Below, piece after piece: positions 3,445 to 63,712 of a stretch of 64,000 bases of DNA. The stretch comes from Octopus vulgaris. Its lineage: Eukaryota. The position numbers and the translations under genes are program-made. The stretch's first letter is position 1; every line of letters starts with the position of its first letter. The stretch spans positions 211,792,001 through 211,856,000 of the forward strand of contig OX597814.1 in assembly GCA_951406725.2 (NCBI GenBank). The letters are read 5' to 3'. Under the pieces are notes generated by a model that saw only the letters and a list, made by a program, of their open reading frames with translations, was not told the DNA's origin and did no database searches.

Positions 3445-3483
3445 GTGTGTGTATGTATCTATATATCTTTCGTGGTGATCCGC

Positions 3484-3772
3484 CGGTTACGGCGAAGATG
3501 GTCCCAGTTGATCCGATCAACGGAACAGGTTGCTCGTGAAATTAACTTGCAAGTGGCTGAGCAGTCAAAGACACGTGTAACCTTAACGTAGTTCTCAGGG
3601 AGATTAAGCGTGATACAGAAAGTTCTGGTGAAAGACTACAGTAGGGTTCGCCTGTCGGTGCTTCGGGGAGGATTAGGTGTTTTCGCTCAATAAACAATCA
3701 CAACGAAGATCGAAACCGCAATCCTATGACCGCGAGTCTGCTGCCCTAACCGCTGGGCAATTGCACCTCCAC
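3484..3772 (-). mobile_element. tRNA-derived SINE family A, internally deleted
   Basis: Reverse complement matches the copy at 34575-34960 (gatccgatcaacggaaca, cgtgaaattaa, aaaccgcaatcctatgaccgcgagtc). Confidence 0.85.
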
Positions 3773-5689: not shown

Positions 5690-6760
5690 AATTGCTTTGA
5701 TTAAAACCTTTTCAACATGGAAGTATCCAAGGAGCATTTAAGGTACATATAATTCTTTATGAGTACAATAAAGTTAACTCTGCAGCCGAAGTGACTCGAA
5801 ACATACACTCAGTTTATGGGAAAGTGCTTGAATGAAAGAACTTGCAGGAGATCGTTTGCAAAATTGAAGATGAAAAGCGAACAGGACGTCCAGTTGAGTT
5901 TGATGATAAGTTCCTTGAGGCATTACTTGAAAAAAATCCGTCATCATCAGTTGAAGAATTGGCAATAAAGCTTACTTCAAACCATACAACAGTTCATCGT
6001 CATCTTCAACAACGTGGAAAGATTCCTAAACTTGGAAAATAGGTGCCTCATGTATTGTCCGAAAGCAACCGCAAATCCCGAGTTGACATCTGCTCTTCTC
6101 TTCATTCTCGCAAACTAATTTCACCCCTTTTCGATAGACTTGTGACGAAAAATGGATTTTCTATCGAAATGTTAAACGTCGTAAAGAGTGGATTGATAAA
6201 AAGGAAAATGCTCAACCACAACCGAGAAGGGAACTTCATGGGAAAAAGGTTCTTCTCTCTATGTGGTGCGATTGCAAAGGCGTAATTCACTTTATATTGT
6301 TACCACCAAATGCAACAATCAATGCTCAAGTCTACTGTCAGCAATTAGAGTATTTGAACCAAGCTTTGAAGGAAAAAAGAGCCGCTTTAGTGAGTCGAAA
6401 TCGAGTGATGTTTCATCAGGACAATGTGCAACCCCACACTGCAAAAATTTCTTCATCCAACTTATTCTCCCGACCTTACTCTTTCAGGATACCATTCGTT
6501 TCATAGTTTACAGAATTATTAGGTGGAGGGGCACAAGTTTCGCAAGCCAAGAGGAGGTCGAACCTGACATTTCACAGTTCTTCGTTTGAAACCAAAAGAG
6601 CTTTAAATTAATGGGATTAAGAAGCTTGTAAATAGATGGAAGTAAGTCAGAGATAATCAGGGAAAGTACATTGATGATTGACTTTCAATTAAATATAACA
6701 TTTGATCACTTGTATTCTTTATCCAAAATTCGGACAGAAATTATGGGATGACCTGAGATA
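5690..6760 (+). mobile_element. Decayed mariner (DD34D-type) transposon
   Basis: MEVSKEHLR.. from 5718; RTGRPVEFD, K*VPHVLSE (WVPHEL motif), LHGKKVLLSMWCDCKG, FHQDNVQPH, YSPDL; right TIR aaattcggacagaaattatgggatgacctga at about 6726-6756. Confidence 0.93.
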
Positions 6761-6764
6761 TATA

Positions 6765-7320
6765 CACTGGCGAAAATATATTTAAGACCGACGATAAAAG
6801 TTCTATTTCTTACAAAATATTTTGTTACTAACACCATACAAATTATTTTTATCTTTTACACCTTATGCAAAATTTATTTTTCTTTCGAATGATGCAGACA
6901 ATAACTATTTTTATACAACTTCAAGAATTATAATGCTAAATATAAACATTTCAAATTTAACACTAAAATTAGTTTAAGACCATGTAATATGTATGCAAAT
7001 TTTTGGCCAAAATGGGTGGTCACACAACGAGCCTAAATGTACCATATAAAGTTATAATTTAATGTTATCATACAATTTATTAATAATGGGAAAACAACGT
7101 AGCCTTAGTCCAGTCACGAGAGCAAAAATCGTATATTACAGCAAAAAGTTTCCTTTTCGAACATCAGCAAGCAACTAAAGTGCAGTAAAACGGGTTGCGT
7201 GCAGGCGTGAAAGTTATACTCGGAGACTGGTTAATATAAAAATCGGTAATGGTCTAGTAACAGAATATTTTGTAAGAAATAGAACTTTTATAATCGTTCT
7301 TAAATTTATTTTCGCCAGTG
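6765..7320 (+). mobile_element. Internally deleted Tc1-like element (MITE-sized)
   Basis: About 65 bp TIRs: cactggcgaaaat...ttctatttcttacaaaatatt / aatattttgtaagaaatagaa...attttcgccagtg. TA on the left flank; residual N-terminal transposase MGKQRSLSPVTRAKIV at about 7087. Confidence 0.88.
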
Positions 7321-7322
7321 TG

Positions 7323-7409
<87 letters not shown>

Positions 7410-7486
7410 GGATATATAGTATATATATACATTTTTGTCTCCGTATATATACGAGAATATATATAATATATACCTATAGTATATAG

Positions 7487-7562
<76 letters not shown>

Positions 7563-7776
7563 CATAATTAAATCTCAGAATGAGATTGAAACAGTAATCG
7601 CTCGATAATGTAAAGTATAGAAGCCATCTTATCATGGCTAACCACATTGGGGAGGGGGTGTTACTGTAGCTTTATAGCCCCAAGAGATCTTCGTCTCTAG
7701 CTGGCTAGACACAATATCTGTGTCCTTGGAGTATTTGCAAAGGGAGGCCATCCCTTCCTCGCAAGCCTGAGTGATA

Positions 7777-7819
7777 CGCTCGAACTAGTTTCGGGATTTT
7801 TGTCCCTCGTCAACGGGCG
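7777..7819 (-). ncRNA. Minimal type-I hammerhead ribozyme motif
   Basis: cgcccg-TTGACGA-ggga(caaaaa)tccc-GAAA-c-ta-GTT-cgagcg: stem I 5/6 bp, stem II 4 bp, palindromic aactagtt stem III, C3U core variant. Confidence 0.75.
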
Positions 7820-8168
7820 GTAATCAACAGGTAGCGATGAAAGAGAAGGCTCCTTTGCAAATAGATATAAGTTTTTCTAATGGCATCTGCCACTGATTTC
7901 GAAAAACGAACTGTAAGCATAATTAAATCCCAGAATGAGATTGAAACAGTAAAGGCTATAAAGCTACAGTAACACCCCACTCCCCAATGTGGTTAGCCAT
8001 GATAAGATGGCTTCTATACTTTACATTATCGAGCGATTACTGTTTCAATCTCATTCTGAGATTTAATTATGCTTACTGTTCGTTTTTCGACATCAGTGGC
8101 AGATGACATTAGAAAAACTTATATCTATTTGCAAAGGAGCCTTCTCTTTCATCGCTATCTGGTGGTTA

Positions 8169-8211
8169 CCGCCGTTGACGAGGGACAAAAATCCCGAAAC
8201 TAGTTCGAGCG
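8169..8211 (+). ncRNA. Minimal type-I hammerhead ribozyme motif (inverted copy)
   Basis: ccgccg-TTGACGA(8175-8181)-ggga caaaaa tccc-GAAA(8196-8199)-cta-GTT-cgagcg. Confidence 0.72.
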
Positions 8212-8369
8212 TATCACTCCCTTTGCACATACTCCAAGGACACAGATATTGTGTCTAGCCAGCTAGAGACGAAGATCTCTTGGGGCTATAAAGCTACAGT
8301 AACATACCCCCACCCCAATGTGGTTAGCCATGATAAGATGGCTTCTATACTTTACAATATATATATATA

Positions 8370-8590
8370 TATATATACAAAACTGAGAATGTGTGTCTGT
8401 CTGCCTGTTTCCCTAAAACTTGAGAACTACACAACCAATTTCATTCAGATTTTACACATGCCTTACTTAGGGTCCATGTAGTGTCATCGCTTCTTGCCTA
8501 GGGCGAGTCCACAGCAATCGCATATCTTCTCCACTATTTCAGTCTTACGTGTTAAAAGTGAAACAAAATCATCTTTCTATTGTATGTATA
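8370..8590 (+). mobile_element. Possible Helitron/DINE-1-like non-autonomous 5' end
   Basis: (TA)n-caaaactgagaatgtgtgtctgtctgcctg followed by ccaatttcattcagattttacac resembles HINE/DINE-type 5' ends. Recognition only. Confidence 0.35.
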
Positions 8591-8596
8591 TGGATG

Positions 8597-8647
<51 letters not shown>

Positions 8648-9370
8648 TATATAGATATATATTTTTATATATATATATATATAGCTGTATATGTATACAT
8701 GTATATGTATAGCTGTATATGTATAGATGTATTTCTATAGATCTCCGTGTATGTCTAGTTGTATATATATATATATATATGTATATATATACACAATTCA
8801 TAATTTTTTGGGAAAAAACTTTTATCCTTCATTAGGTATAAATATATATATATCTATATATTTATAAAACATTGTTGTTGAACCGATACTTCAAGTAACG
8901 ACTAGGCTAGGGTAACTGACTGCTTATTGTGATCATTCGTCTTTTGTTTTCCTGTAGCTTTGCTCTCTTTTACAAACCCAGTGAACATATATTTCCTATT
9001 TCAAAGAAACTCAAACAATAGTTATAAGACCCAAGTTAAACCGATTTTCAAGAATTCATATTCTCTGGTTGACATTAAGATGCCCACTCCCAACATGGGC
9101 CTTAACTCTCACATTTTAGAGCTCCATGACCTTAAATGTTTAGGAGCAAAATCTTTTTAAGAGGTTCAATAAGACTGGAATTTTGGAATATGCGCATAAA
9201 AATCAGTAGTATGGGATACATGTGGCACGATTACAATTTTTTTACGGTGTGTAAAGAGGGAAATAACCCTAATCTGCAATTTTGATGAAATTCGAAACAT
9301 AGATATTCCAGTTAGATATTCCATATCTTTCTGTTATATTTTCTGTAATGAACTGGAATATCTATGTTTC

Positions 9371-19560: not shown

Positions 19561-19833
19561 ATCTGTCGTTTCGCTTCGACTGTAATTCCAAATTAATAAT
19601 AGCACTTAAGTACATATTTCCTTTATTGGAAGCTTCGTGCGGCTCCATTCATCATTTTTAATGGATTAAATCGAAAGAAATTCAATAGGGAATTACCAAA
19701 TGTTAAAATACGTAAACTCCTTGATGAACATGATATATTCTTTATACAGGTATACACTTATAAACATGGACGTATTCGGATTTAATATATAGTATTGCTG
19801 TAAATGTTATATCCGGATAAGTGAATGCCGAAA

Positions 19834-20252
19834 GGCGCAGGTGTGGCTGTGTGGTAAGTAGATTGCTTACCAACCACATGGTTCCGGGTTCAGTCCCACT
19901 GCGTGGCATCTTGGGCAAGTGTCTTCTACTATAGCCTCGGGCCGACCAAAGCCTTGTGCGTGGATTTGGTAGACGGAAACTGAAAGAAGCCTGTCGTATA
20001 TATGTATATACATATATGTATGTGTGTGTATATGTTTGTGTGTCTGTATTTGTACCCCTAGCATTGCTTGACAACCGATGCTGGTGTGTTTACGTCCCCG
20101 ACATTTAGCGGTTCGGCAAAAGAGATCGATAGAATAAGTACTGGGCTTACAAAGAATAAGTTCCGGGGTCGATTTGCTCGACTAAAGGTGGTGCTCCAGC
20201 ATGGCCGCAGTCAAATGACTGAAACAAGTAAAAGAGTAAAAGAGTAAAAGAG
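19834..20252 (+). mobile_element. tRNA-derived SINE family B with internal (TA)/(TG) microsatellite
   Basis: A box tggctgtgtggtaag, B-box-like ggttcagtccc, tail ggtggtgctccagcatggccgcag...(gtaaaaga)n. Five copies in the window. Confidence 0.92.
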
Positions 20253-26185: not shown

Positions 26186-27047
26186 TATGTATATGTACAT
26201 TCATTTCAAGAGACACCCTGCAGATTTCAATGTTGTTTTAATGATTTGGAAAGATCTATGTGAAAATGGTAACAAAATATGTAAATATTCGCAAAGTTAA
26301 ACACTAAAACATTAGACTACTGTTAGTTTTCACGTAATATTGACTATAAATCTGCAAAATATTACACTAAATCATCTTAACATAAAAATACATATTCTAG
26401 AATATTTAAGTGTAAATATTTGCGCATATCCAGTAGCTTTCATATTTTCAATGACTTACTTCCCTGTCCACAAAAACAAAAGTAAACAATCATAGTAGTA
26501 AACAGTAAAAAATAGATTAATATTGAGTGAACGCAAATTGCCGTCGGGGTTGGGTACAATTATGCTAATATCTATACCGTTGTTTGTAACAACGAAGCTA
26601 CCTTACATTCACGTATGAACTGCTGAAGGAAGAAAGAAAATATTTGTAGATATAGTTGTAGTGGCATTAGCGGTGATGTTTTTATTATGTTAATGATTAA
26701 ATGTAAAACATAGGGCTGAGGGGAATGTACCTGGGGGTGGGGAACATTTCTGGCTTTAAGGGTATCGCGAAGGCCTGGCTGGAGTCCCAGGGCTTGGAAA
26801 AACTAAATAACCGCTGCAATAAGTGAGTGAATCTGAGAGAGAAATATGTTGAACCAATTCTTAATTAACTGATCCTCCTATGTATTCTTTTGTCCAAAGC
26901 CGGAAGTTCGTCAGTAACCCCTTTGTATTGATATTAGTGAGTGTTTGTTATTTGGGACCCTGTGAGGAACCTAAAAAGATTTCAATGTGGAAGGCGTCGG
27001 TTAGCCATTCAGTAACACACAAAAATCTATCAGCTTCACTAGAGCAC

Positions 27048-27186
27048 TTATTGTTTGTAATTTAGTGTCAAAATTTTCGCCACTTGTTTACTAACAACAT
27101 TATTGCAATGCATGTCAAAAATGTTGTTAGCTACCAGGTCGCACTTTAAAGCGGCGAAAATTTTGACACCATATTACGAACAATAA
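27048..27186. repeat. Nested fold-back (MITE-like hairpin)
   Basis: 38 bp arms 27048-27085 / 27149-27186 with about 4 mismatches; inner arms ctaacaacatt / aatgttgttag. Confidence 0.85.
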
Positions 27187-27329
27187 ATATGTAAGTAAAG
27201 ATAACTGTCTTTGTGTTTCTGAATGACTACCATATGTTGTCAAAATGGCAATCATAAATATATACGTACATACACACGTACACGCACACACATATTCGTT
27301 AATTCTATTATTTATATGCGTTTCAGCAC

Positions 27330-28561: not shown

Positions 28562-28854
28562 TGTTATTTGCACATATAGATTCAAAATAACAAACAAATT
28601 CTCTTCCAAACTGAAATCCAATTTTCAACTAAATTTCATATATGTAAAGGACAAATATTTTCTGTAAAAATATCATTCTTTATCAATTTCTGAAAGATTG
28701 AATCACTAAAAAAAATCATCCGAAATTCTGATTGCCTGCTTTCGTTGAGAATCCAATAAGATCCTTTAATCGATTAAGTTTCTTCCTAATTTTCTCAAAC
28801 TACGTAGAAATAGTATAATGATCCCTGTGTATATAAGTACTATATATGTTGCCT

Positions 28855-29090
28855 ATTCTACATCATACCTTGATACTGTGTGGGCTTAGCCCTGTTTATA
28901 TAATATTATAATATTACCTATAATGTAACATACTTTTATAATGTTTGGACTTAACCCTGTTTATAAAAGTAATATACATGTTACCTATACTTTATCATGC
29001 CTTGATACAGTGCGGTCTAAGCCCTGTTCATAAAATATTATACATGTTAATTATACTAAATCATACCTTGATACCGTGTAGGCTAAGATC
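28855..29090 (+). repeat. Degenerate minisatellite, about 66 bp unit, about 3.5 copies
   Basis: tcataccttgata..gtg.gg.ctaagccctgtttata.aa.att..a.atgttacctata recurs. Confidence 0.8.
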
Positions 29091-31530: not shown

Positions 31531-31573
31531 TCTTACCAACAATCTGACCGCTTTGTTTCACAAAGATGACAAT

Positions 31574-31733
31574 GGCGCAGGAGTGACTGTGTGGGAAGTA
31601 GCTTGCTTACCAACCACATGGTTCCGGGTTCAGTCTCACAGCGTGGCAAGTTGGGCAAGTGTCTTCTACAATAGCATTGAGCCGACGAAGCCTTGGGAGC
31701 GGATTTGGTACACGGAAACTGAAAGAAGCCCGT

Positions 31734-31769
<36 letters not shown>

Positions 31770-32026
31770 TGTGTGTGTGTGTGTGTGTGTGTATGTGTGT
31801 ATTTATGTGTGTGTGTGTGTGAGCGTTTGCATATCTGTGATTGTTCCCTCACATCGTTTGACAACCGCTACTAGTGTGTTTACGTCCCCGTAACTTAGCG
31901 GTTCGGCAAAAACGACGGATATAATAAGTACTAGGCTTACAAACAAGAAGATTCGTTCGACTAAAGGCGGTGCTCCAGCATGGCCGCAATCAAATGACTA
32001 AAACAAATAGAAAAAGAAAAAAAAGA
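31574..32026 (+). mobile_element. SINE family B
   Basis: Matches the 19834 copy; internal (TA)n(TG)n is expanded. Confidence 0.9.
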
Positions 32027-34020: not shown

Positions 34021-34574
34021 AAACGAATTAGAACAAAACCGTGCACGAATCGTAGTTATATTTGTGATTGTACTACAACACATCGATTTGGAACTCGGGG
34101 TAATTTTAATCTTTTCAGGTTAAAAATCATCAAAATTAATTTAATGTTAATTTCCGAGGAGAAGTCTAGTAAAACTACTAATTCAACAGATCGCAGTTTT
34201 TGACGCTTAACGAAGAACCGATGAATATATCTGTCGCTGGTGTTCTAGCTTTCAAGAACACTAACAAAAGAAAAGTAAATCTTTATTTCTCATCTTACAG
34301 AAACAAACACCTGATAATGATCGAGACAATGATGGATTAACTTAAAAACTCGTTGCGCCTCATCTTTCAATTTTCCATTTCCTTATCGTAGTAAGTTGCT
34401 ATTTAGTCTTTTTACGGTTGACTGACTTTTTAGAAACATGCCAAATTCCACACAGCTATACTTGTTAGTAAGCGCTTGCCTTTAGTATATGTGTACCCAT
34501 CTGATGTGTGTAGACGTTTATGTGTCTATGTTTAGTGTTAGCGTCTGTGTCTATATCACTATAACTGCGTAAGT

Positions 34575-34960
34575 GGAGACGCAATGGCCCGGTGTTTAGG
34601 GCAGCGGACTCGCGGTCATAGGATCGCGGTTTCGATTCCCAGACCGGACGTTGTGAGTGTTTATTGAGCGAAAACACCTAAAGCTCCACGAGGCTCCGGC
34701 AGGGGATGGTGGTGATCCCTGCTGTACTCTTTCACCACAACTTTCTCTCACTCTTACTTCCTGTTTCTGTTGTACCTTGTATTTCAAAGGGCCGGCCTTG
34801 TCACTATCTGTGTCACGCTGAATATCCCCGAGAACTACGTTAAGGGTACACGTGTCTGTGGAGTGCTCAGCCACTTACACGTTAATGTCACGAGCAGGCT
34901 TTTCCGTTGATTCGGATCAGCCGGAACCCTCGTCGTCGTAACCGACGGAGTGCTTCCATC
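34575..34960 (+). mobile_element. Full-length tRNA(Arg-like)-derived SINE family A with TSD
   Basis: A box tggcccggtgtttagg, B box ggtttcgattccc; flanking direct repeat ataactgcgtaagt at 34561-34574 and 34961-34974. Confidence 0.95.
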
Positions 34961-37902: not shown

Positions 37903-38290
37903 GGATATGGAAGCACTCCGTCGGTTACGACGACGAGGGTTCCGGTTGATCCGATCAACGGAACAGCCTGTTCGTGAAATTAAGGTGTAAGTGACTGAGC
38001 ACTCCACAGACACGTGTACCCTTAACGTAGTTCTCGGGGATATTCAGCGTGACACAGAGAGTGACAAGGCCGGCCCTTTGAAATACAGGTACAACAGAAA
38101 CAGGAAGTAAGAGTGAGAGAAAGTTGTGGTGAAAGAGTACAGCAGGGGTCACCACCATCCCTGCCGGAGCCTCGTGGAGCTTTAGGTGTTTTCGCTCAAT
38201 AAACACTCACAACGCCCGGTCTGGGAATCGAAACCGCGATCCTACGACCGCGAGTCCGCTGCCCGAACCACTGGGCTATTGTGCCTCCAC
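37903..38290 (-). mobile_element. Full-length SINE family A with TSD
   Basis: Reverse complement of the 34575 copy; TSD tacccaactagat at 37890-37902 and 38291-38303. Confidence 0.95.
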
Positions 38291-38935
38291 TACCCAACTA
38301 GATAATACATAATGAAACGTACGTGCTTCAAATTTGCTACGTTATATATATATACCATTTTTATTTTCAATTCATGGCTATGGGACCATAAAGATAAACA
38401 TGGCGTCTATAGTGAACAGGGATTAGTTGAACAAGTCAGCGCACGACGTATTCTCTGAAGCTTGATTATAGAAAATGGTGGTTATTCTAGCGTTATATGT
38501 GGAGTTATGTGACTTCACTGATCCCGGATTTTTTCTGTTTTGATGCGTGTTTTATATTTATCAGAACTGAAGAACAAAGGTGATATTCATGATGGTGTTC
38601 GATTATCAATCTGTAGCAGTTACAGGAATAATTTCTCTAATTTTACATTTATGGCAAATAACGGTGGAGTGTACCACATCCCAAAACATGCTGCCTTTCA
38701 ATGTCAGTATATCGGGATTAAACTAAAATTGTGTAATAGGATGATCATTTCGGGATTATTTGATTGCGTGGTGGAAGACCTAAAGTAATATGCGACTGAA
38801 TAAATATCACATACTCACATACGGATAAATAGAGAGATACATGCATAGAAAGAGATAGATAAGTGAGTGTACGTTTTTAAGTGTACGTGTATGTGTGTAT
38901 ATATATACATACATCTAAATATATATATATATGTA

Positions 38936-39038
<103 letters not shown>

Positions 39039-39168
39039 TTCAGCAAAATTTAGATTCAAATGAATATGGTACTTAAGTCAGATGCACCATAATTTTGTAC
39101 GGTGTTATCCATATAAAACCACGGGGTGATTATAGTCAAAATAAGCAACAAGAATATCTTCGGTAATT

Positions 39169-39252
39169 TGGTACGATCGTTTCACGTTACATCATTTTAT
39201 TAAACATTGTAAGTATTACAACAGTTTAAAAATGTTGAGCAATCATCAACCA
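39169..39252 (-). ncRNA. Type-I hammerhead motif with long stem II
   Basis: tgg-TTGATGA-[59 nt hairpin]-GAAA-CGATC-GTA-cca; palindrome acgatcgt. Confidence 0.6.
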
Positions 39253-39331
39253 TTTATAGAGGTTTTCATCAATACGTATTTATTTATAAAGGTTTTCATG
39301 AAAACAGGGAAATAAGTATATGTATTATAAA

Positions 39332-39415
39332 TGGCTGATGATTGTTCAACATTTTAAAACTGTTGTAATACTTACAATGTTTAATAAAATGATGTAGCGT
39401 GAAACGATGGTACCA
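39332..39415 (+). ncRNA. Type-I hammerhead motif with long stem II
   Basis: tgg-CTGATGA(39335-39341)-[catttta/taaaatg, aaac/gttt and ttgtaa/ttacaa helices]-GAAA(39401-39404)-cgatg-GTA-cca. Confidence 0.65.
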
Positions 39416-39449
39416 AATTACCGAATATATTCTTGTTGCTTATTTTGAT

Positions 39450-39511
<62 letters not shown>

Positions 39512-41048: not shown

Positions 41049-41265
41049 CTCTTTTACTCTTTTACTCTTTTACTTGTTTCAGTCATTGACAGCGGCCAGG
41101 CTGGAGCACCGCCTTTAGTCGAGCAAATCAACCCCAGGACTTATTCTTTGTAAGCCCAGTACTTATTCTATCGGTCTCTTTTTGCCGAACCGCTAAGTGA
41201 CGGGGACGTAAGCACACGAGCATCGGTTGTCAAGCAATGCTAGAGGTACAAACACAGAAACACAA

Positions 41266-41322
<57 letters not shown>

Positions 41323-41487
41323 TACGACAGGCTTCTTTCAGTTTCCGTTTACCAAATCCACTCACAAGGCATTGGTCGGCCCGGGGCTATAGCAGAAGAC
41401 ACCTGCCCAAGATGCCACGCAGTGGGACTGAACCCGGAACCATGTGGTTGGTTAGCAAGCTACTTACCACACAGCCAGTCCTGCGTC
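41049..41487 (-). mobile_element. SINE family B
   Basis: Reverse complement of the 19834 copy. Confidence 0.92.
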
Positions 41488-41499
41488 TCTCATAACTAA

Positions 41500-48389: not shown

Positions 48390-48742
48390 GCACTCAGTCG
48401 GTTACAACAAAGAGGGTTCCAGTTGATCCGTTCAACGGAGCACCCTGCTCGTGAAATTAATGTGCAAGCGGCTGAGCAATCCTCAGACACGAGTGACGTT
48501 AACGTTTTTCTCGGGGAGATTCAGCGTGACAGAGAATTTGGCAAGGCTGGCCCTTTGAAGAACATGTACAACAGAAACAAGAAAAAAGAGTGAGAGGAAG
48601 TTGTGATGAGAGAGTATAACAGGGTTCGTCACCAACCCCTGCTGAAGCATTGTGGTGTTTTAAGTGCTTTCATTTAATAAACATACACAACGCCCGGTTT
48701 GGGGGTCGAAAACGCGAGTCCGCTGCCCTAACCACTGGACAA
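48390..48742 (-). mobile_element. SINE family A, diverged
   Basis: gagggttccagttgatccg..cgtgaaattaa..ggctggccctttgaa..cgagtccgctgccctaaccactgg. Confidence 0.88.
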
Positions 48743-49197
48743 TTACATTTCTCTCTCTCTCTCTAACCACACACACACACACACCTATATATATCTGTAT
48801 ACACACACATACACACACACACACACATGCACACACATATATATATATATATATATATGTATATTTACATATACTTGTAATATAGGATAACATTTTTTTT
48901 GCAAAAACATTCCATCAAAAAGGCCATCATATTCAAATACCTTTAAAAGTTAAAATTATAAACAATTATAAGCAAGGACAAAAGAAAGAATGATTTCTAT
49001 GTCAATATTCTGAGAATATATTTGAATCGTCAATCACCACATTACAATATACATTCACTATCAATACACCTCGTGCTGAAATCGAGGAAGGCAAGTTAAG
49101 AGACTTTTTTTTTTAAATTCTTTATCTCTCTATGTATGTATATATGAATGTATGTATATATGCATGTATGTTTGTATATACTTCACTATAATTTACA

Positions 49198-49600
49198 GCT
49201 GGAGTGGCTGTGTGGCAAGTAGCTCGCTTACCAACCACATGGTTCCGGGTTCAGTCCCACTGCGTGGCATCTTGGGCAAGTGTCTTCTGCTATAGCCTCG
49301 GGCCGACCAATGCCTTGTGAATAGATTTGGTAGACGGAAACTGAAAGAAGCCTGTGGTATATATGTACATACATATATGTATGTGTGTGTGTATATGTTT
49401 GTGTGTCTGTGTTTGTCCCACCACCATCGCTTGACAACCGATGCTGGTGTGTTTACGTACTCATCACTTAGCGGTTCGGCAAAAAGAGACCGATAGAATA
49501 AGTACTGGGCTTACAAAGAATAAGACCCGGGGTCGATTTGCTCGACTAAAGGTGGTGCTCCAGCTTGGCCGCAGTCACATGACTGAAACAAGTAAAAGAG
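49198..49600 (+). mobile_element. SINE family B
   Basis: Matches the 19834 copy. Confidence 0.92.
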
Positions 49601-52600
49601 TATAGCTATGTAATATAACTAGAATGTTTTCTTGATGTAAATGGAAGGGCGTTGTTTCTGCATTAAAATTTGGAATTTTATCTTCTGTGAACAAATTCAG
49701 CATATAAGGAAGAAAAAATGCGCATACATACGTAATCACACGCACACCAGTAATGTAAAGTAGGACAGATATTTGTTTACGTTTGCTGTCACTACCCTCC
49801 CTAATAACGTTTCTTAGCATTTTTACTCGCATTGGGAGGTGACATATAAAGAATTATCATACATATAATCACATAGATATATATTGACAGTAAACAAATA
49901 TTTTCAGTTATTTTGAATATGATTAAATAATAATATGGCTGGAAATAGTAAATGTGAGGTTCGAAAATTAGTTCGCCTTATAAAATACAATAAAATAAAA
50001 TAAAATACCTATCATTTCTTATTCACGAAAAAAATTCATATTTATAGAAAGCGAAATTATACCGGGACCTCAAACAGCATTTCAAATATCTGCCCATAAT
50101 GTAACTTATAATTATTTCATAAAAAACCTGTGAGATCAAAGACTCGACAGACTGAAATGTGATATTACAACCTGAAGGAACGAAATGCATTCATTGTGTT
50201 AATAAAATAGGAAAGTATCCAAAGGTATATGTATATGATCACATAGATATTTTCAAATTTGTCTTTCATTTTGTGTTTCTATGTGCGTTTGTGAGTAAAT
50301 ATATATTTAAGTATACATATACATATAAGTATATATATATGTGTGTGCGTGTGGGTCTGTGTGTGTGTGTCTGTGTGTGTGTGTGTATGTGTGTGTGTGT
50401 ATGTGTGTTTGTTTGTAGATACATACATACACGCATACACACTCGCACGCACAAGCACGCGCAAAACACACACACACGCACGCACACACCCTGAGATGCC
50501 TTCACTTGCTCTACTGAACTTCCTTCTAAATATCTGGACCTCAACTTTCTTCCTTTCATCGCTTCCCTCCCGTTTCACATCTATGATACCACTTATGCCA
50601 TTTGCGTATTTAATTCCTTTTACCTCCACTCCCGGCTCCTTCCCTTCCTCTGTACCACGGTCGTCAAATCCCTCTACGCCCTCTTCGCCCAAAATGACAG
50701 TCTCCTGTCCCTCCAATACTTCCTCAGAATCGCACCGTCCTTGAAGTCAGGGCATCTACACTTCTCTGTATCACTGAACCAGTTCTCGCCTATGACTGAT
50801 TCCCGTTGACGGGCGCGGTTCACAACCCACCCTGTCCTTCTCTAGCTACCACTCCCCTATTTTTTATGCACCCAAACCCTACGGATTCCTAGCCTCCTCC
50901 CCTTCTCCGCTCTCACTCATCACATATCTTTCGTTGCTCTTGAACTCGATGCCACACCTGTGCATTTATCACCAACAGAGTTTCGCTCGCAGGTACAAAC
51001 CAACACACTGTTCACATCCGATATGTTTATCATGTATCTCATCTAACATCCGCGGTGATAGGCCCCACATGCTGTGACACCATTTCCAGCGGCAACTTGG
51101 TGTCGTCACCTACCAGCCAAGGCTCCACTACTTGTCAGGTTGATAAAAACAAGCTGTCAAATGAGTGGCTCTCCGACAGATTTTATGTTCGAGTCTGTGG
51201 CACAGGGGACATACGACGTTCTTCGAACACGGACTGTACCTCTACTAACATTTCACAGGGCGGAAATTGCTCCCTGCAAGTGCGAGCCCCGTCAGTCAGA
51301 GTAGCTGTTCCCGTGCAACTCCCTCGCTATCATCCGGGACAGAGTCTTTTCCATATAGTCTGCTGGTACCACGAGAAATGTTTCTATATTGTGAGAGGCA
51401 AGAATCTCTGTTATTCTGCTACTAATACTGACTTACTGCCTTAAATGTACTCTTTGCTGATCTGTAGAAGTCGGGTACACTGGGCACTACTGAACGTTTT
51501 GGAGATATCCACCTCAGAAAACTATCTCAGCTGCCCACACCTTTTGCTCGATTAATCACTCCACACAATACCTGACGGTGTCCTCCCTGTCCTTACACAA
51601 TGACGATTCCGGCAGCAGACTTTGCAAGGAGCAACGATACATCTCTTTACGAACTCATATGCCGATTGGACTTAACACAGCCACTTCCTTCTTTTAAGAG
51701 CCTCTGACGTCATCTCTCTCAGCAATCTCAATCCACTTTCCTCTGATTTCCTCTGTTCCTTTACTCTCCACTTGTCTTCTACATAGTCATATACATAACT
51801 TTCACTTTCACCTAAGACAAACACGCGCGTGCGCACACAGCATAGCACACACATACACACACACACACGTTTAAAGATAATCATAAGCACATACAAAAAA
51901 CAATTCACAAACACCTCTACACTCCTACACACACACTCATACGCACGAACACACATACACACACATACACACACGCAAATGCTTATAACCACAGAAACGT
52001 ACATAGACAGACACAAAATCACATGCCTACAAACACGGTAGCCCACATGCTTTCACAGACATAACGGGGCCCCTCCCCCACCTCATATTGTACTACTGTT
52101 ACTAACCTGTTAGTTCCATCCTCGCACGTACACACTGACACAAACAAACAGAAATACATATGCTATTATCTTACGTAGCACCCCCTATTATACAAACCAT
52201 ATATTGACAAGAATGAATCTCGCTGCAGCCGTCGGCGGACGCGAACTCATTAAAATTAAAATGTAAGAAATACAAACCTATTTCGGATTGATCACCGACA
52301 AAGTCGATGAATCTAGGATAACACAACCAAACGAAATAAAAAATTAAATTAAAGAAAACACTATTGTCTATAAAGTATACAATGTAGAGAAAAAAAAATT
52401 TGAACACCTGGAGGAAAGCACCAGCGAAAAGTGTCTTGGTGCGACTATGAAAGATATCAAGTATCTAACGAGAGGCGGTAAATTCGCCACAATAGAAACA
52501 AGGTTCGAGGCAACGGAGCGTGCAAGGGAATACTCGACTCGAACCTTGCAAAGTGGAAATATTTTATTTTTACCTTTATATCTGGAACGTAGGACGTCCC

Positions 52601-53965: not shown

Positions 53966-54122
53966 CCGAGTGGCTGTGTGATAAGTAGCTTGCTAACCAA
54001 CCACATGGTTCCGGGTTCAGTCCCACTGCGTGGCATCTTGGGCAAGTGTCTTCTGCTATAGCCCTGGGCCGACCAATGCCTTGTGAGTGGATTTGGTAGA
54101 CAGAAACTTAAAGAAGCCTGTC

Positions 54123-54161
<39 letters not shown>

Positions 54162-54387
54162 GTGTGTGTGTATATGTTTGTGTGTCTGTGTTTGTCTCCC
54201 TAGCATTGCTTGACAACCGATGCTGGTGTGTTTACGTCCCCGTCACTTAGCGGTTCGGCAAAAAGAGACCGATAGAATAAGTACTGGGCTTACAAAGAAT
54301 AAGTCCCGGGGTCGATTTGCTCGACTAAAGACGGTGCTCCAGCATGGCCGCAGTCAAATGATTGAAACAAGTAAACGAATAAAAGAA
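53966..54387 (+). mobile_element. SINE family B
   Basis: Matches the 19834 copy. Confidence 0.92.
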
Positions 54388-54832
54388 TATATATACAAAA
54401 TATTAAGTTATATCTTGAGTGATAACAACGCTCAAGATATACAACGGACTGGAAATAGAAGTGCTCCAATGATCTGTATACACTTTTTTTATTCAAGGGG
54501 AGGCAATGCGAGCAACAACCACGGGAACATCACAAAATTCAAAGATAGGCCAAACACATACAAATCTTATATACTAATTTATATTTAAACAGCCCGACAT
54601 TTAAAAAAAAAATTTTATTTCAGTAATATATAAGTATCCTATACAAATAAAAATATAAATATTAATATAATTTTTGCATATAACACGGTTAAAACTGTTA
54701 GAATAAGAGAAATAAATATAATGATAATAAAATAAAAATATGGCATATCAAAAGACGAACAAAATTCCGGCGAATATTACATAGAATATAACACATATAC
54801 AAGTTTACAAAAATATAAGATATACAAAAGTC

Positions 54833-60324: not shown

Positions 60325-61948
60325 CAGTGGCGGCCAAAATGTTGAGAACGACATTGTTTTCATCAGAAAAGTAGGTATAAGTTTTTATCAAAGTGGTTTT
60401 ATATTCTATAATTTTCATGGACAGTAAATACCATAGGATGTGTTATTGCCTGATATTTTGGTGTAATTTGAGAAGATAATACAAAAGTTATGGATGATTT
60501 AGTGATTTACTGCAAAACCCATGGCGGCCAAAATGATCAAAACGGTTGCTTTTACTCGGTGTTTTAGTATATTTAACCGGCGAACTCTAATGCTTTTAAT
60601 TTGTTTACGTGACGGTTCGTTTACTAAACATTGGTAAGAATATATGCAGTGTACTTTGTTAATATAATGCCACTTACTCAGTTACCAATTCGTCAGCATA
60701 TTATTAAGCTCCGAAGGAAGGATAATTTAAGTATTGGATCTATTGCAATGATTGTTAACAAGTCAAAACGTGTTGTACACGGTATTCTGAAAGTCTACGA
60801 TGATTGTGGTTCGTGTGAAGCAAGAAAGTTTACAGGTAGGCCAAGAAAAACGACCAAGAGAGAAGATCGTGCTATGGTAAAGTTGGTTAAAAAGGACAGA
60901 TTTAAAACTGCTGTTGCTGTTTCTCGGAAAATGAGCATTGTATTGAAGAAAACTTCATCTCGAAAAACTGTGTCTCGTCGTTTAGTTGAACATGACCTAC
61001 AAGCAAGAGCACCTGAAGTGAAGCCACTGATCAGCTCCAAGAATAAAAAAGTGTCGTCTTACCTTTGCAACCGAACATGTGTTGTGGTCTCAAGAAAAAC
61101 GGCAAACGTTGCATTTCAGTGATGAATCTAAGTTTATGTTATTTGGCTCAGATGGGAAAAGGTAGTTCGTCGAAAAGTAGTGAAAAATTGTCGCCTAAAT
61201 GCTTTAAGACTAGTGTTAAATTCGGTGGAAGAAGTGTCATGGTTTGGGGAATGATATATGGAGGTGGTGTGGGCCCTTTGGTGCGATTACATGGAAAGTT
61301 AAATGCAGGAGTTTATAAACAACTTGTAAAAGATCATGTCTTGTCTGTGCTGAGAAATTCAACTAAGCGACCACCCATGTTCATGCAGGACAATGCTCTA
61401 TGTCACAAGGCTAAGTTGGTCATGAACTTCCTCAAGGCTGAAAATGTTATTGTTATAGATTGGCTTGCTCAAAGCCCAGATCTCAATCCTATTAAAAATG
61501 TATGGACTATTCTAGGAGAACGTTCGAAAGTCAGAAATCCTAAAACAACTGAGCAATTATGGAATGCCCTTCAGGAAGAATGGAATAAGATCACCCAGCA
61601 AGAAATTGAAAATTTAATTTCCTCATGCAGTCGAAGATGTCAGAGTGTGATTGAAGTTAAAGGGTTTCACACTAAATATTAAATAATTCCAGCATTCTCT
61701 GTCATTTTTGATTATTTTGTTATTTTTTCAACCGTTCTGATAATTTTGGCCGCCATGGGTTTTGCAGTAAATCACTAAATCATCCATAACTTTGTATTAT
61801 CCTCTCAAATTACACCAAAATCTCAGACAATAACAAAGAATATAGTATGTATTGTCTGTGAAAATTATAGAATATAAAACAACTTTGATAAAAACTTATA
61901 CCTACTTTTCTGACAAAAACAATGCCGTTCTGAACATTTTGGCCGCAA

Positions 61949-61951
<3 letters not shown>
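60325..61951 (+). mobile_element. Near full-length Tc1 (DD34E) transposon with ~223 bp IR/DR ends and TA TSD
   Basis: TIRs 60325-60548 / 61729-61951 begin cagtggcggccaaaatg; internal direct repeat tggcggccaaaatg; TA on both sides. Confidence 0.97.
60667..61682 (+). pseudogene. Frameshifted Tc1 transposase
   Basis: MPLTQLPIRQH..GRPRKTT..; FSDES (about 61116); VKFGGRSVMVWG; QDNA-34-K (catalytic E replaced by K in SPDLNPIKN); frameshifts near 61050 and 61160. Confidence 0.93.
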
Positions 61952-62014
<63 letters not shown>

Positions 62015-62049
62015 TTAAAAGGCGGCTTATTAGCAATTCGAACCAAAAT

Positions 62050-62375
62050 GGAAAATTAATAGAGATCACAAAAGCGACGGAGAGTGCTGACTACCACATC
62101 TTAAGCTAAAATAAGAGTTAAATGAACGCCAAGATCCACCAACGCATTTCAACTAATAACTGACAAAGAAGGTAATTCTATAGCGTATATAGGCGCATCG
62201 CGATTATGAATTCTGGTGTAGACTATCTTACCTCTAATCAGTGGCTTACTTCCCTTTGTCAGTCAATAGGTATAGTGCCTAAGTGGCTTTGGATTTAATC
62301 TAACTCTTATTTTAGCATAAGCGGTGCTAGTCAGTACACTCCGTCACTTTTGTGTCCTCCATTAATTTTCCCTTT
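62050..62375. repeat. About 325 bp imperfect fold-back between (TA)n tracts
   Basis: ggaaaattaat.gag..cacaaaag.gacggag.gt.ctgacta..ac..ctta.gctaaaataagagtta occurs at both ends in inverted orientation; inner actgacaaag/ctttgtcagt. Confidence 0.85.
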
Positions 62376-62593: not shown

Positions 62594-63639
62594 TTGGGTT
62601 ATATAGTAAACACATATTTTAACGGTGAGAACCGAAGCAATAGAACAGAGAGGAATGAATTATTATATCAACAATTGAGGGTAAAATTAATTAGTTATTA
62701 ATCAATTTCACCAAGTAGTGTTCAGTATGTAAAAGGACCATTTAAGGCGAATTCAAAATATTATATTATATAATTAGGGCTTAGTAAAGTAAATTACTTT
62801 GCCACATACTGAACTTTCTAGAAATATTGCTTCGGTTCTCACCGTTAAAATATGTGTTTACTAGATAACCCACGTGGGTGGAAGGGGAGAGAGCAGGAAT
62901 CTTCGCTTGCGCATTTTGAATTTGTTAGTACTGGCAGTCTGAGCGTGTTCATCTGAGGTGATACCTCGCCGAAGGGTATGTTCTTCCTTTTAGTGCTTCC
63001 AAATCCAAATTAAGAAATTTTGAGCTGACGAAAGAAATGCTGAGCTTATTTGGCTAATCTAGAAACGTTAACGTTCTCAAATGATCTTTGTACTTGTGAT
63101 ATTTTTCTGTTTTCACCTCCATACCTTCGTGAGTTATTTATGAGTAAACATTATCTGGGAGAAATTTTCTTAAAGTGGTGGAAATGGCTAAAAAACTTTT
63201 TGGCTGCTATTTCTAGAAAGTTCAGTATGTGGCAAAGTAATTTACTTTACTAAGCCCTAATTATATAATATAATATTTTGAATTCGCCTTAAATGGTCCT
63301 TTTACATACTGAACACTACTTGGTGAAATTGATTAATAACTAATTAATTTTACCCTCAATTGTTGATATATATATATATATTTCTGTTTTTACCTCCATA
63401 CCTTCGTGAGTTATTTTGAGTAAACATTATCTGAGAGAAATTATCTTTAAGTAGTGGAAATGGCTAAAAAGCTTTTTTGGCTGCTATTTCTAGAAAGTTC
63501 AGTATGTGGCAAAGTAATTTATTTTACTAAGCCCTAATTATATAATGTACTATTTTGAATTCGCCTTAAATGGTCCTTTTACATACTGAATACTTGGTGA
63601 AATTGATTAATAAGTAATTAATTTTACCCTCAATTGTTG

Positions 63640-63645
<6 letters not shown>
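62594..63645. mobile_element. Penelope-pLTR/retrozyme-like patchwork with inverted and tandem copies
   Basis: About 47 bp IR 62595-62642 / 62825-62872; 62664-62826 is the reverse complement of about 63209-63369; the ~270 bp unit 63100-63370 is repeated at 63380-63645. Confidence 0.8.
63019..63081 (+). ncRNA. Type-I hammerhead ribozyme motif
   Basis: tttgag-CTGACGA(63025-63031)-a.aga...tct.a-GAAA(63062-63065)-CGTTAAC-GTT-ctcaaa: perfect 6 bp stem I and palindromic aacgttaacgtt stem III. Confidence 0.78.

Positions 63646-63712
<67 letters not shown>

Follow-up and report, generated by a model that had tools for sequence, protein, structure and literature searches.

A 355-bp hammerhead repeat of Octopus vulgaris: a putative non-LTR retrozyme with insertion ends like those of Penelope-like elements

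Here we describe an insertion in a 64-kb window of Octopus vulgaris DNA (the window being the whole stretch that was analysed, AT-rich animal DNA with many microsatellites), in which two arms of a 355-bp non-coding unit, at positions 7562-7952 and 7954-8356, lie head-to-head (5'-5') inside (TA)n. We consider it probable that the insertion represents a non-LTR retrozyme that was inserted in the manner of Penelope-like elements (PLEs), in line with the retrozyme-like unit and the Penelope-type mobilisation brought up in the preliminary description of this DNA, and both its retrozyme-like unit and its PLE-type ends agree with this view. Judged by sequence-level criteria, the element is a candidate new family among metazoan non-LTR retrozymes. 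Non-LTR retrozymes and their proposed mobilisation by PLEs are already in print: the proposal for animal retrozymes dates from 2020 (Cervera & de la Pena, PMC7229834), pLTR homology in frogs backs it (Li, Clavereau & Pollet, 2026, bioRxiv 10.64898/2026.07.22.740005), and non-LTR retrozymes are also reviewed in PMC6155905. A retrozyme family with the tail, inversion and target of PLEs supports this mobilisation from the insertion side, and two candidate start sites of reverse transcription can be named. Our literature search found no account of this family, of any cephalopod retrozyme or of PLE-type retrozyme ends, and Repbase, Dfam or supplements may list the family; in the main text of a 2026 paper on O. 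vulgaris repeats (PMC13282606) the words 'ribozyme' and 'retrozyme' have 0 occurrences.

The locus and its relatives

The two arms were aligned to a concatemer of 7562-7916 as reference. Other copies of the unit and their ends were mapped from short contigs of sequencing runs (X1, X2 and so on); the summed depth of these contigs does not give copy numbers. The features of the locus are as follows.

7562-7952, minus strand: arm A, 391 nt or 1.10 units (unit positions 1-391), 3' end at 7562 and 5' end at 7952
7954-8356, plus strand: arm B, inverted, 1.20 units (unit positions 47-473), 3' end at 8356
7953, no strand: head-to-head junction, a single extra base that is part of neither arm
7562-7608, minus strand: 'tail' of 47 nt that separates the two recurrent 3' ends, on the end of arm A and missing from that of arm B; contains a 7-bp hairpin
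8219/8220, plus strand: 25-nt deletion in arm B; contigs of X2, X3 and X7 have the undeleted form (loose ends at 8217/8219)
7323-7561, no strand: left (TA)n microsatellite, interrupted, the likely insertion target
8357-8377, no strand: right (TA)n run

In the sense of the hammerhead, both arms point outwards, with their 3' ends touching (TA)n and their 5' ends meeting, and each arm reads head-to-tail through the unit junction. The lengths of 1.1 and about 1.2 units, the read-through in both copies, the (TA)n on both flanks and the lack of a meaningful ORF had all been noted before and hold; the deletion, previously put at ~23 nt, is 25 nt in the alignment, and as a family variant it is ruled out for X2, X3 and X7. 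No Met-ORF of the circularised unit is longer than 41 aa. With 355 bp, a GC content of 0.434 and hence below 45%, no coding capacity and no LTR, the unit has the size and composition of a retrozyme. The arms are ~2% apart, with 8 substitutions and 4 indels in an alignment of 400 columns. The locus is one decayed, old insertion of a many-copy repeat; the 64-kb window holds no further copy of the unit, and no tRNA lies in 7000-9000. Following the right TA run, the flank at 8378-8590 resembles the beginning of a Helitron-like element of the non-autonomous kind; on the left side there is a MITE-like 73-nt inverted pair (6758-6830 and 7255-7327, 92%).

The 355-bp unit is a many-copy repeat. It is present, at least in part, in 20 of the 24 listed runs, from 12 studies and 6 organism codes, and in four large runs (X1, X2, X3 and X7) 708, 671, 762 and 482 contigs match arm B; 1097 contigs of X1 match arm A. 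The loose ends of these contigs are described below from the rows listed, which are 24 of 283 for arm B and 24 of 139 for arm A. Among them, contigs enter long unrelated AT-rich flanks at 8026-8029 in X1, X3 and X7 (6, 10 and 7 contigs, respectively), a flank-bearing loose end lies at 8073 (4 contigs in X1), and long contigs of X2 and X3 stop at 8066 and 8076. Placed one unit upstream, the 3' end of arm B at 8356 falls at 8025-8029, and the sites 8026-8029 and 8073 are the 3' ends of arms B and A, respectively, shifted by one unit. Among the rows listed for arm A the same ends appear at 7608 (X1 and X19) and 7564 (X18), the X1 contigs probably being the same ones. The family therefore has two recurrent 3' ends, 'short' and 'long', 44-47 nt apart, and its inner 5' ends vary. 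A counter-case is one X3 contig with a 3' loose end at 8164; X2 has no loose-end row at either recurrent site among those listed, and no pile-up of contig ends came out for arm A or arm B. Because the 3' ends recur in other copies, random circular permutation is ruled out.

Four other opposite-strand joints of the family, with varied inner ends, were found in contigs on arm B, and one of the four could be oriented, as head-to-head. With regard to direct tandems, each arm has one hammerhead and head-to-tail junctions also occur in contigs; no contig spans a whole unit.

The hammerhead

The hammerheads of the two arms and the predicted hairpin that surrounds one of them are as follows.

8158-8227, plus strand: type I hammerhead of arm B (Rfam HH9, 26.7 bits, E 2.9e-4)
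7774-7823, minus strand: type I hammerhead of arm A (Rfam HH9, 25.5 bits, E 7.1e-4)
7735-7860, minus strand: predicted long hairpin of ~125 nt (-51.2 kcal/mol), which extends helix I and has the hammerhead at its tip

Both HH9 matches lie under the 52-bit gathering score, at which Rfam gives 0 matches in the whole window, and theirs are the two lowest E-values among 16 matches at E<=10. A strict motif scan of the window gave one match (7813, minus strand), compared with 0.07 on average in 30 shuffles; the hammerhead of arm B, in which helix I has lost one base near 8171-8174, escaped it. The core positions are U3 8175, G8 8180 and U17 8205 in arm B, with a predicted cut after 8205, the GUU already pointed to as the cleavage site, and U3 7813, G8 7808 and N17 (U) 7783 in arm A, with a predicted cut at 7783/7782. 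In the HH9 alignment, helix I has 6 pairs with one mismatch and bulge motifs on both strands, the 4-bp helix II has a 6-nt loop like that of the model, and helix III is short and palindromic. The preliminary description had assigned one minimal hammerhead to each copy. The number stands, with one per arm, and the type has to be revised: instead of a minimal motif lacking helix III and tertiary motifs, the predicted structure fits a canonical metazoan type I hammerhead, with helix III and helix I bulge and loop II motifs. Canonical metazoan type I hammerheads are thought to need a dimer, in contrast to the minimal PLE motif (PMC4209133). Opening the core within the arm A hairpin has a predicted cost of 0.1 kcal/mol. 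The circularised unit folds with z = -5.5 in the sense and -3.2 in the antisense orientation (60 shuffles each), and the 71-nt hammerhead motifs alone fold no better than shuffles (z -0.01 and -1.32).

The variation among copies bears on the fold as well. N17 is U in both arms and C in 96% of the summed contig depth (X1, contigs on arm A), so that the usual GUC of the family is replaced by a rare GUU at this locus; this family letter rests on the arm A alignment, position 8205 being unlisted on arm B, probably due to contigs breaking at the nearby deletion. Other copies have U at position 3 and either G or A at position 8. The change from G8 to A, which restores a U3-A8 pair, makes up 7-14% of the summed depth in four of four runs (contigs on arm B) and 24% in X1 (contigs on arm A). 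Covariation of U3 and position 8 is already in print (PMC4209133). Furthermore, a sister form, seen in loose ends at 7779 in 4 contigs of X1, 1 of X18 and 2 of X19, has a helix II pair changed on both sides and the helix III palindrome replaced by another palindrome. As read from these changes, the variation among copies is compensatory and keeps the predicted hammerhead fold.

This bears on the possibility that the locus is a product of DNA-level events at a fragile (TA)n site, either a fold-back or the rearrangement of a satellite, and that its hammerhead is due to chance. (TA)n tracts and fold-backs are common in the window, as such an origin would have it; however, the structure-keeping variation of the hammerhead, the recurrence of 3' ends beside unrelated flanks and the strand-consistent orientation all speak against it, and we regard it as very improbable.

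The loose ends at 7779 and 7706 (contigs on 7562-7952) reveal a sister family of hammerheads whose helices II and III differ in sequence and which has the stretch downstream of the cut in common with the 355-bp unit. A search for the hammerhead pattern in metagenome contigs gave 0 matches.

Among the runs listed as containing the unit none is marked as RNA, which speaks neither for nor against a transcript. Three runs guessed to be of RNA (X13, X18 and X19) contain the unit in 39, 77 and 125 contigs, respectively. One X13 contig crosses the unit junction without any difference from arm A, and contigs of X13 and X18 bridge the cleavage site. The ratio of summed depth just downstream of the cut to that just upstream is 14.9, 11.6 and 23.5 in these runs, versus 1.5 in the DNA run X1; further downstream it is 5.9, 3.7 and 12.0 versus 4.1, so that the excess is mostly local. 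We discounted this step as a sign of cleaved RNA: it overlaps loose ends of the sister family and of truncations, and it is not counted because contigs cannot show RNA ends or level.

Insertion in the manner of Penelope-like elements

Insertions of PLEs are described as partly tandem and as including an inverted copy that is truncated at its 5' side; their tail of 30-40 bp is often at one end only, and they prefer (TA)n. Head-to-head inverted insertions are standard among them, and (TA)n-targeting Naiad and Hydra PLEs are listed for Octopus (PMC8557442). A PLE protein has been shown to cut AT-rich DNA on both strands and to extend each of them, and reverse transcription begins at two internal RNA sites, the interval between which is the tail (PMC11167929). 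The locus presents a head-to-head inverted 5'-truncated partner, variable 5' ends, a one-sided tail and an AT-rich/(TA)n target. It thereby resembles the insertions of EN+ PLEs (Penelope/Poseidon, Neptune, Naiad and Hydra) in its partial tandem with inverted 5'-truncated copy, its tail at one end, its two fixed candidate start points of reverse transcription downstream of the hammerhead and its target (PMC8557442, PMC11167929, PMC4209133). Unlike EN+ PLEs, the element is without an RT/GIY-YIG ORF and has a canonical instead of a minimal hammerhead; the tail, which arm A has (47 nt) and arm B does not, has a spacing of 44-47 nt and exceeds the published 30-40 bp. Thus, the element was likely pasted in by a Penelope-type enzyme from both cut strands.

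It follows that the differing phases of the arms probably reflect two start sites of reverse transcription and are by themselves no evidence of a circle. The arms had been seen as different phases of the same circle, which is right as a description, and the outer phases recur in other copies. What no longer stands is the circular permutation as the footprint of a circle, since the outer ends are family-wide sites matching PLE start sites of reverse transcription (PMC11167929). Nor is a single strand switch a special event, as had been supposed, inversions being standard for PLEs (PMC8557442) and the family having four other such joints, besides other fold-backs in the window.

A second explanation is that the unit is the pseudo-LTR of a coding PLE, and that the locus consists of two 5'-truncated, partly tandem PLE ends, with no independent retrozyme RNA. 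The footprint is indeed that of ordinary PLEs (PMC8557442), and Xenopus retrozymes are homologous to pLTRs (bioRxiv 10.64898/2026.07.22.740005). Fixed ends attached to a coding Penelope ORF had been named as the observation that would speak against a retrozyme; the 3' ends are fixed, and no ORF-like loose end is seen beside family copies among the rows listed for arms A and B. Upstream, both arms run into the next 355-nt unit and not into an ORF. A six-frame search of the window gave no PLE RT/EN motif; at this locus no RT plus GIY-YIG ORF is attached to the repeat, and six ORFs of the window, compared with Pfam, gave Tc1/mariner domains only. Furthermore, the hammerhead appears canonical, and most metazoan PLE pLTRs have minimal ones (PMC6155905, PMC4209133). 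A weak test for a sequence link to autonomous PLEs, with ten exact words of 11-15 nt, gave 0 of 10 in the supplement of PMC8557442, and the contig rows listed for the two arms also yielded no such link, which tells against the proposed PLE mobilisation. Taken with its two arguments in favour, we consider the pseudo-LTR explanation unlikely. By its lack of an attached ORF and its hammerhead type, the element falls outside the autonomous PLEs, yet inserts like one.

Compared with metazoan non-LTR retrozymes, our putative retrozyme agrees in its non-coding unit of 355 bp and 43% GC (350-390 bp in mussel, 330/350 bp in axolotl; PMC7229834), in one canonical type I hammerhead per unit, head-to-tail junctions and high copy number, and in a self-paired unit with an accessible hammerhead (predicted here) and a proposed PLE mobilisation. 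It differs in its arms of ~1.1-1.2 units set head-to-head versus a direct array, in a core with U3 and G8/A8 versus C3-G8, and in its PLE-type ends (tail, inversion and (TA)n), no description of which was found in the available text of PMC7229834 and bioRxiv 10.64898/2026.07.22.740005.

The window contains other fold-backs beside (TA)n. At 62595-63640, a second tandem-plus-inverted insert ends in (TA)n and looks like a PLE-type non-coding insertion: 62664-62826 is inverted relative to 63208-63370 (163 nt, 100%), 63099-63381 has a direct repeat at 63376-63655 (94%), the string at 63025 loosely resembles a hammerhead, and the longest stop-free frame has 69 aa. Older fold-backs at 39129-39455, 62046-62375 and 27002-27229 have arm identities of 84%, 70% and 67%, the first two adjoin (TA)n, and they are probably more head-to-head insertions.

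The RNA template and other repeats of the window

The insertion may have come about as follows. The 355-bp hammerhead repeat would be transcribed, and its RNA would cleave itself, probably as a dimer via the palindromic helix III, and would then be ligated. A borrowed PLE reverse transcriptase/endonuclease would bind the RNA, probably a circle, and target-primed reverse transcription would proceed from both cut (TA)n strands, beginning at two fixed places of a single RNA. The two cDNA ends would be joined head-to-head, with point decay afterwards.

Several observations constrain the template. Firstly, measured downstream from the predicted cut, the starts are at 175 and 221 nt, and each arm continues far beyond this cut; barring template jumps, the template was therefore an uncut multimer or a ligated circle. 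Secondly, both arms carry two alleles seldom found in the family, which indicates one source: U17, and the allele at 7885/8104, where 92-99% of the family has the other letter and 1-8% that of arms A and B. The latter is a CpG transition, which could recur independently. These two observations agree with the circular or multimeric template that had been suggested for the locus. The private changes (7824 and 7827 in arm A; 8106, 8158, 8312 and the deletion in arm B) are best read as later decay, and a circle explains the 8 substitutions and 4 indels only as such. The locus alone cannot tell circle from multimer, because both arms cross the cleavage site and have the rare alleles in common under either; this old and short copy is a weaker test of the template than younger multi-unit copies.

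On the one hand, a non-LTR retrozyme inserted by a PLE-type enzyme with a circle as template is a serious possibility that we hold with reserve. A canonical hammerhead should cut multimers, which would favour a circle, and mussel retrozyme RNAs of 350-390 nt are mostly circular (PMC7229834); circular RNAs are known for metazoan retrozymes from the mussel; our element is known from its DNA, with cleavage predicted. Against the proposed course, eight of nine Xenopus retrozyme dimers are reported not to have cleaved in vitro (bioRxiv 10.64898/2026.07.22.740005). In the most specific form of the circle explanation, a PLE enzyme would have made two simultaneous copies of a single RNA ring, primed from both strands of a (TA)n cut and at two fixed sites 47 nt apart; each cDNA would have run for more than one lap, and the common GUC-to-GUU change would be the record of that single molecule. 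We put this forward tentatively; if true, it would provide evidence from a genome that target-primed reverse transcription can use a circle as template, which has been proposed for retrozymes and for which the literature examined, as far as its available text goes, yielded no demonstration.

On the other hand, the same element and enzyme may have used an uncut linear multimer of at least ~2.3 units, from a tandem array, with twin priming, a possibility that is real but rather doubtful. Synthesis of the first cDNA would begin at the long start and halt on meeting the second complex, positioned at the short start of the following unit. A slow GUU, U3.G8 hammerhead would let such a multimer survive; GUU is cleaved more slowly than GUC in hammerheads, and the ribozyme of this copy may be slow. 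The rare U17 is present in both arms. In the concatemer, arm A ends at 391 and arm B begins at 402 (399 with microhomology), leaving a gap of 7-11 nt, and the insert reads as a contiguous 828-nt template with a 5' inversion. In L1 twin priming, 5' inversions arise from linear RNA. The likeness to these inversions lies in the contiguous template, the 5' inversion and the loss of 7-11 nt at the switch point; the differences are that both primings here lie on recurrent sites of the element, that there is no poly(A) tail and that none of the four other joints is adjacent. Published work on PLEs points the same way, since PLE insertion in vitro needs no hammerhead cleavage and uncut RNA is the main substrate of the anole PLE, which favours a linear template (PMC11167929). 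However, in 0 of 4 other inversion joints does the inner end lie within 11 nt of a start site, the adjacency may be due to chance (~3%, for one post hoc observation), and a circle yields the same common alleles without a homogenised array. As a rule for the family, twin priming is rejected, as only one of five junctions fits it.

The window also contains repeats of other kinds. A Tc1/mariner element lies at 60325-61951; its inverted ends measure 224 nt (91%), and its transposase is split between two frames (HTH_Tnp_Tc3_2, DDE_3). A SINE-like repeat of ~160 nt is present in five copies (19830-19991, 31571-31735, 41325-41491, 49198-49355 and 53968-54123), each of which is paired across a microsatellite with a repeat of ~190 nt (20055-20252, 31825-32021, 41049-41267, 49397-49602 and 54176-54389, respectively); we take the SINE-like repeat, as seen at 31571-31735, to be akin to an octopus SINE. 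A minisatellite of 66-67 bp with ~4 copies and 75% matches lies at 28823-29087, and a dispersed family of ~390-nt repeats with 76-95% identity is found at 34572-34959, 37907-38291, 48390-48744 and 3479-3769.
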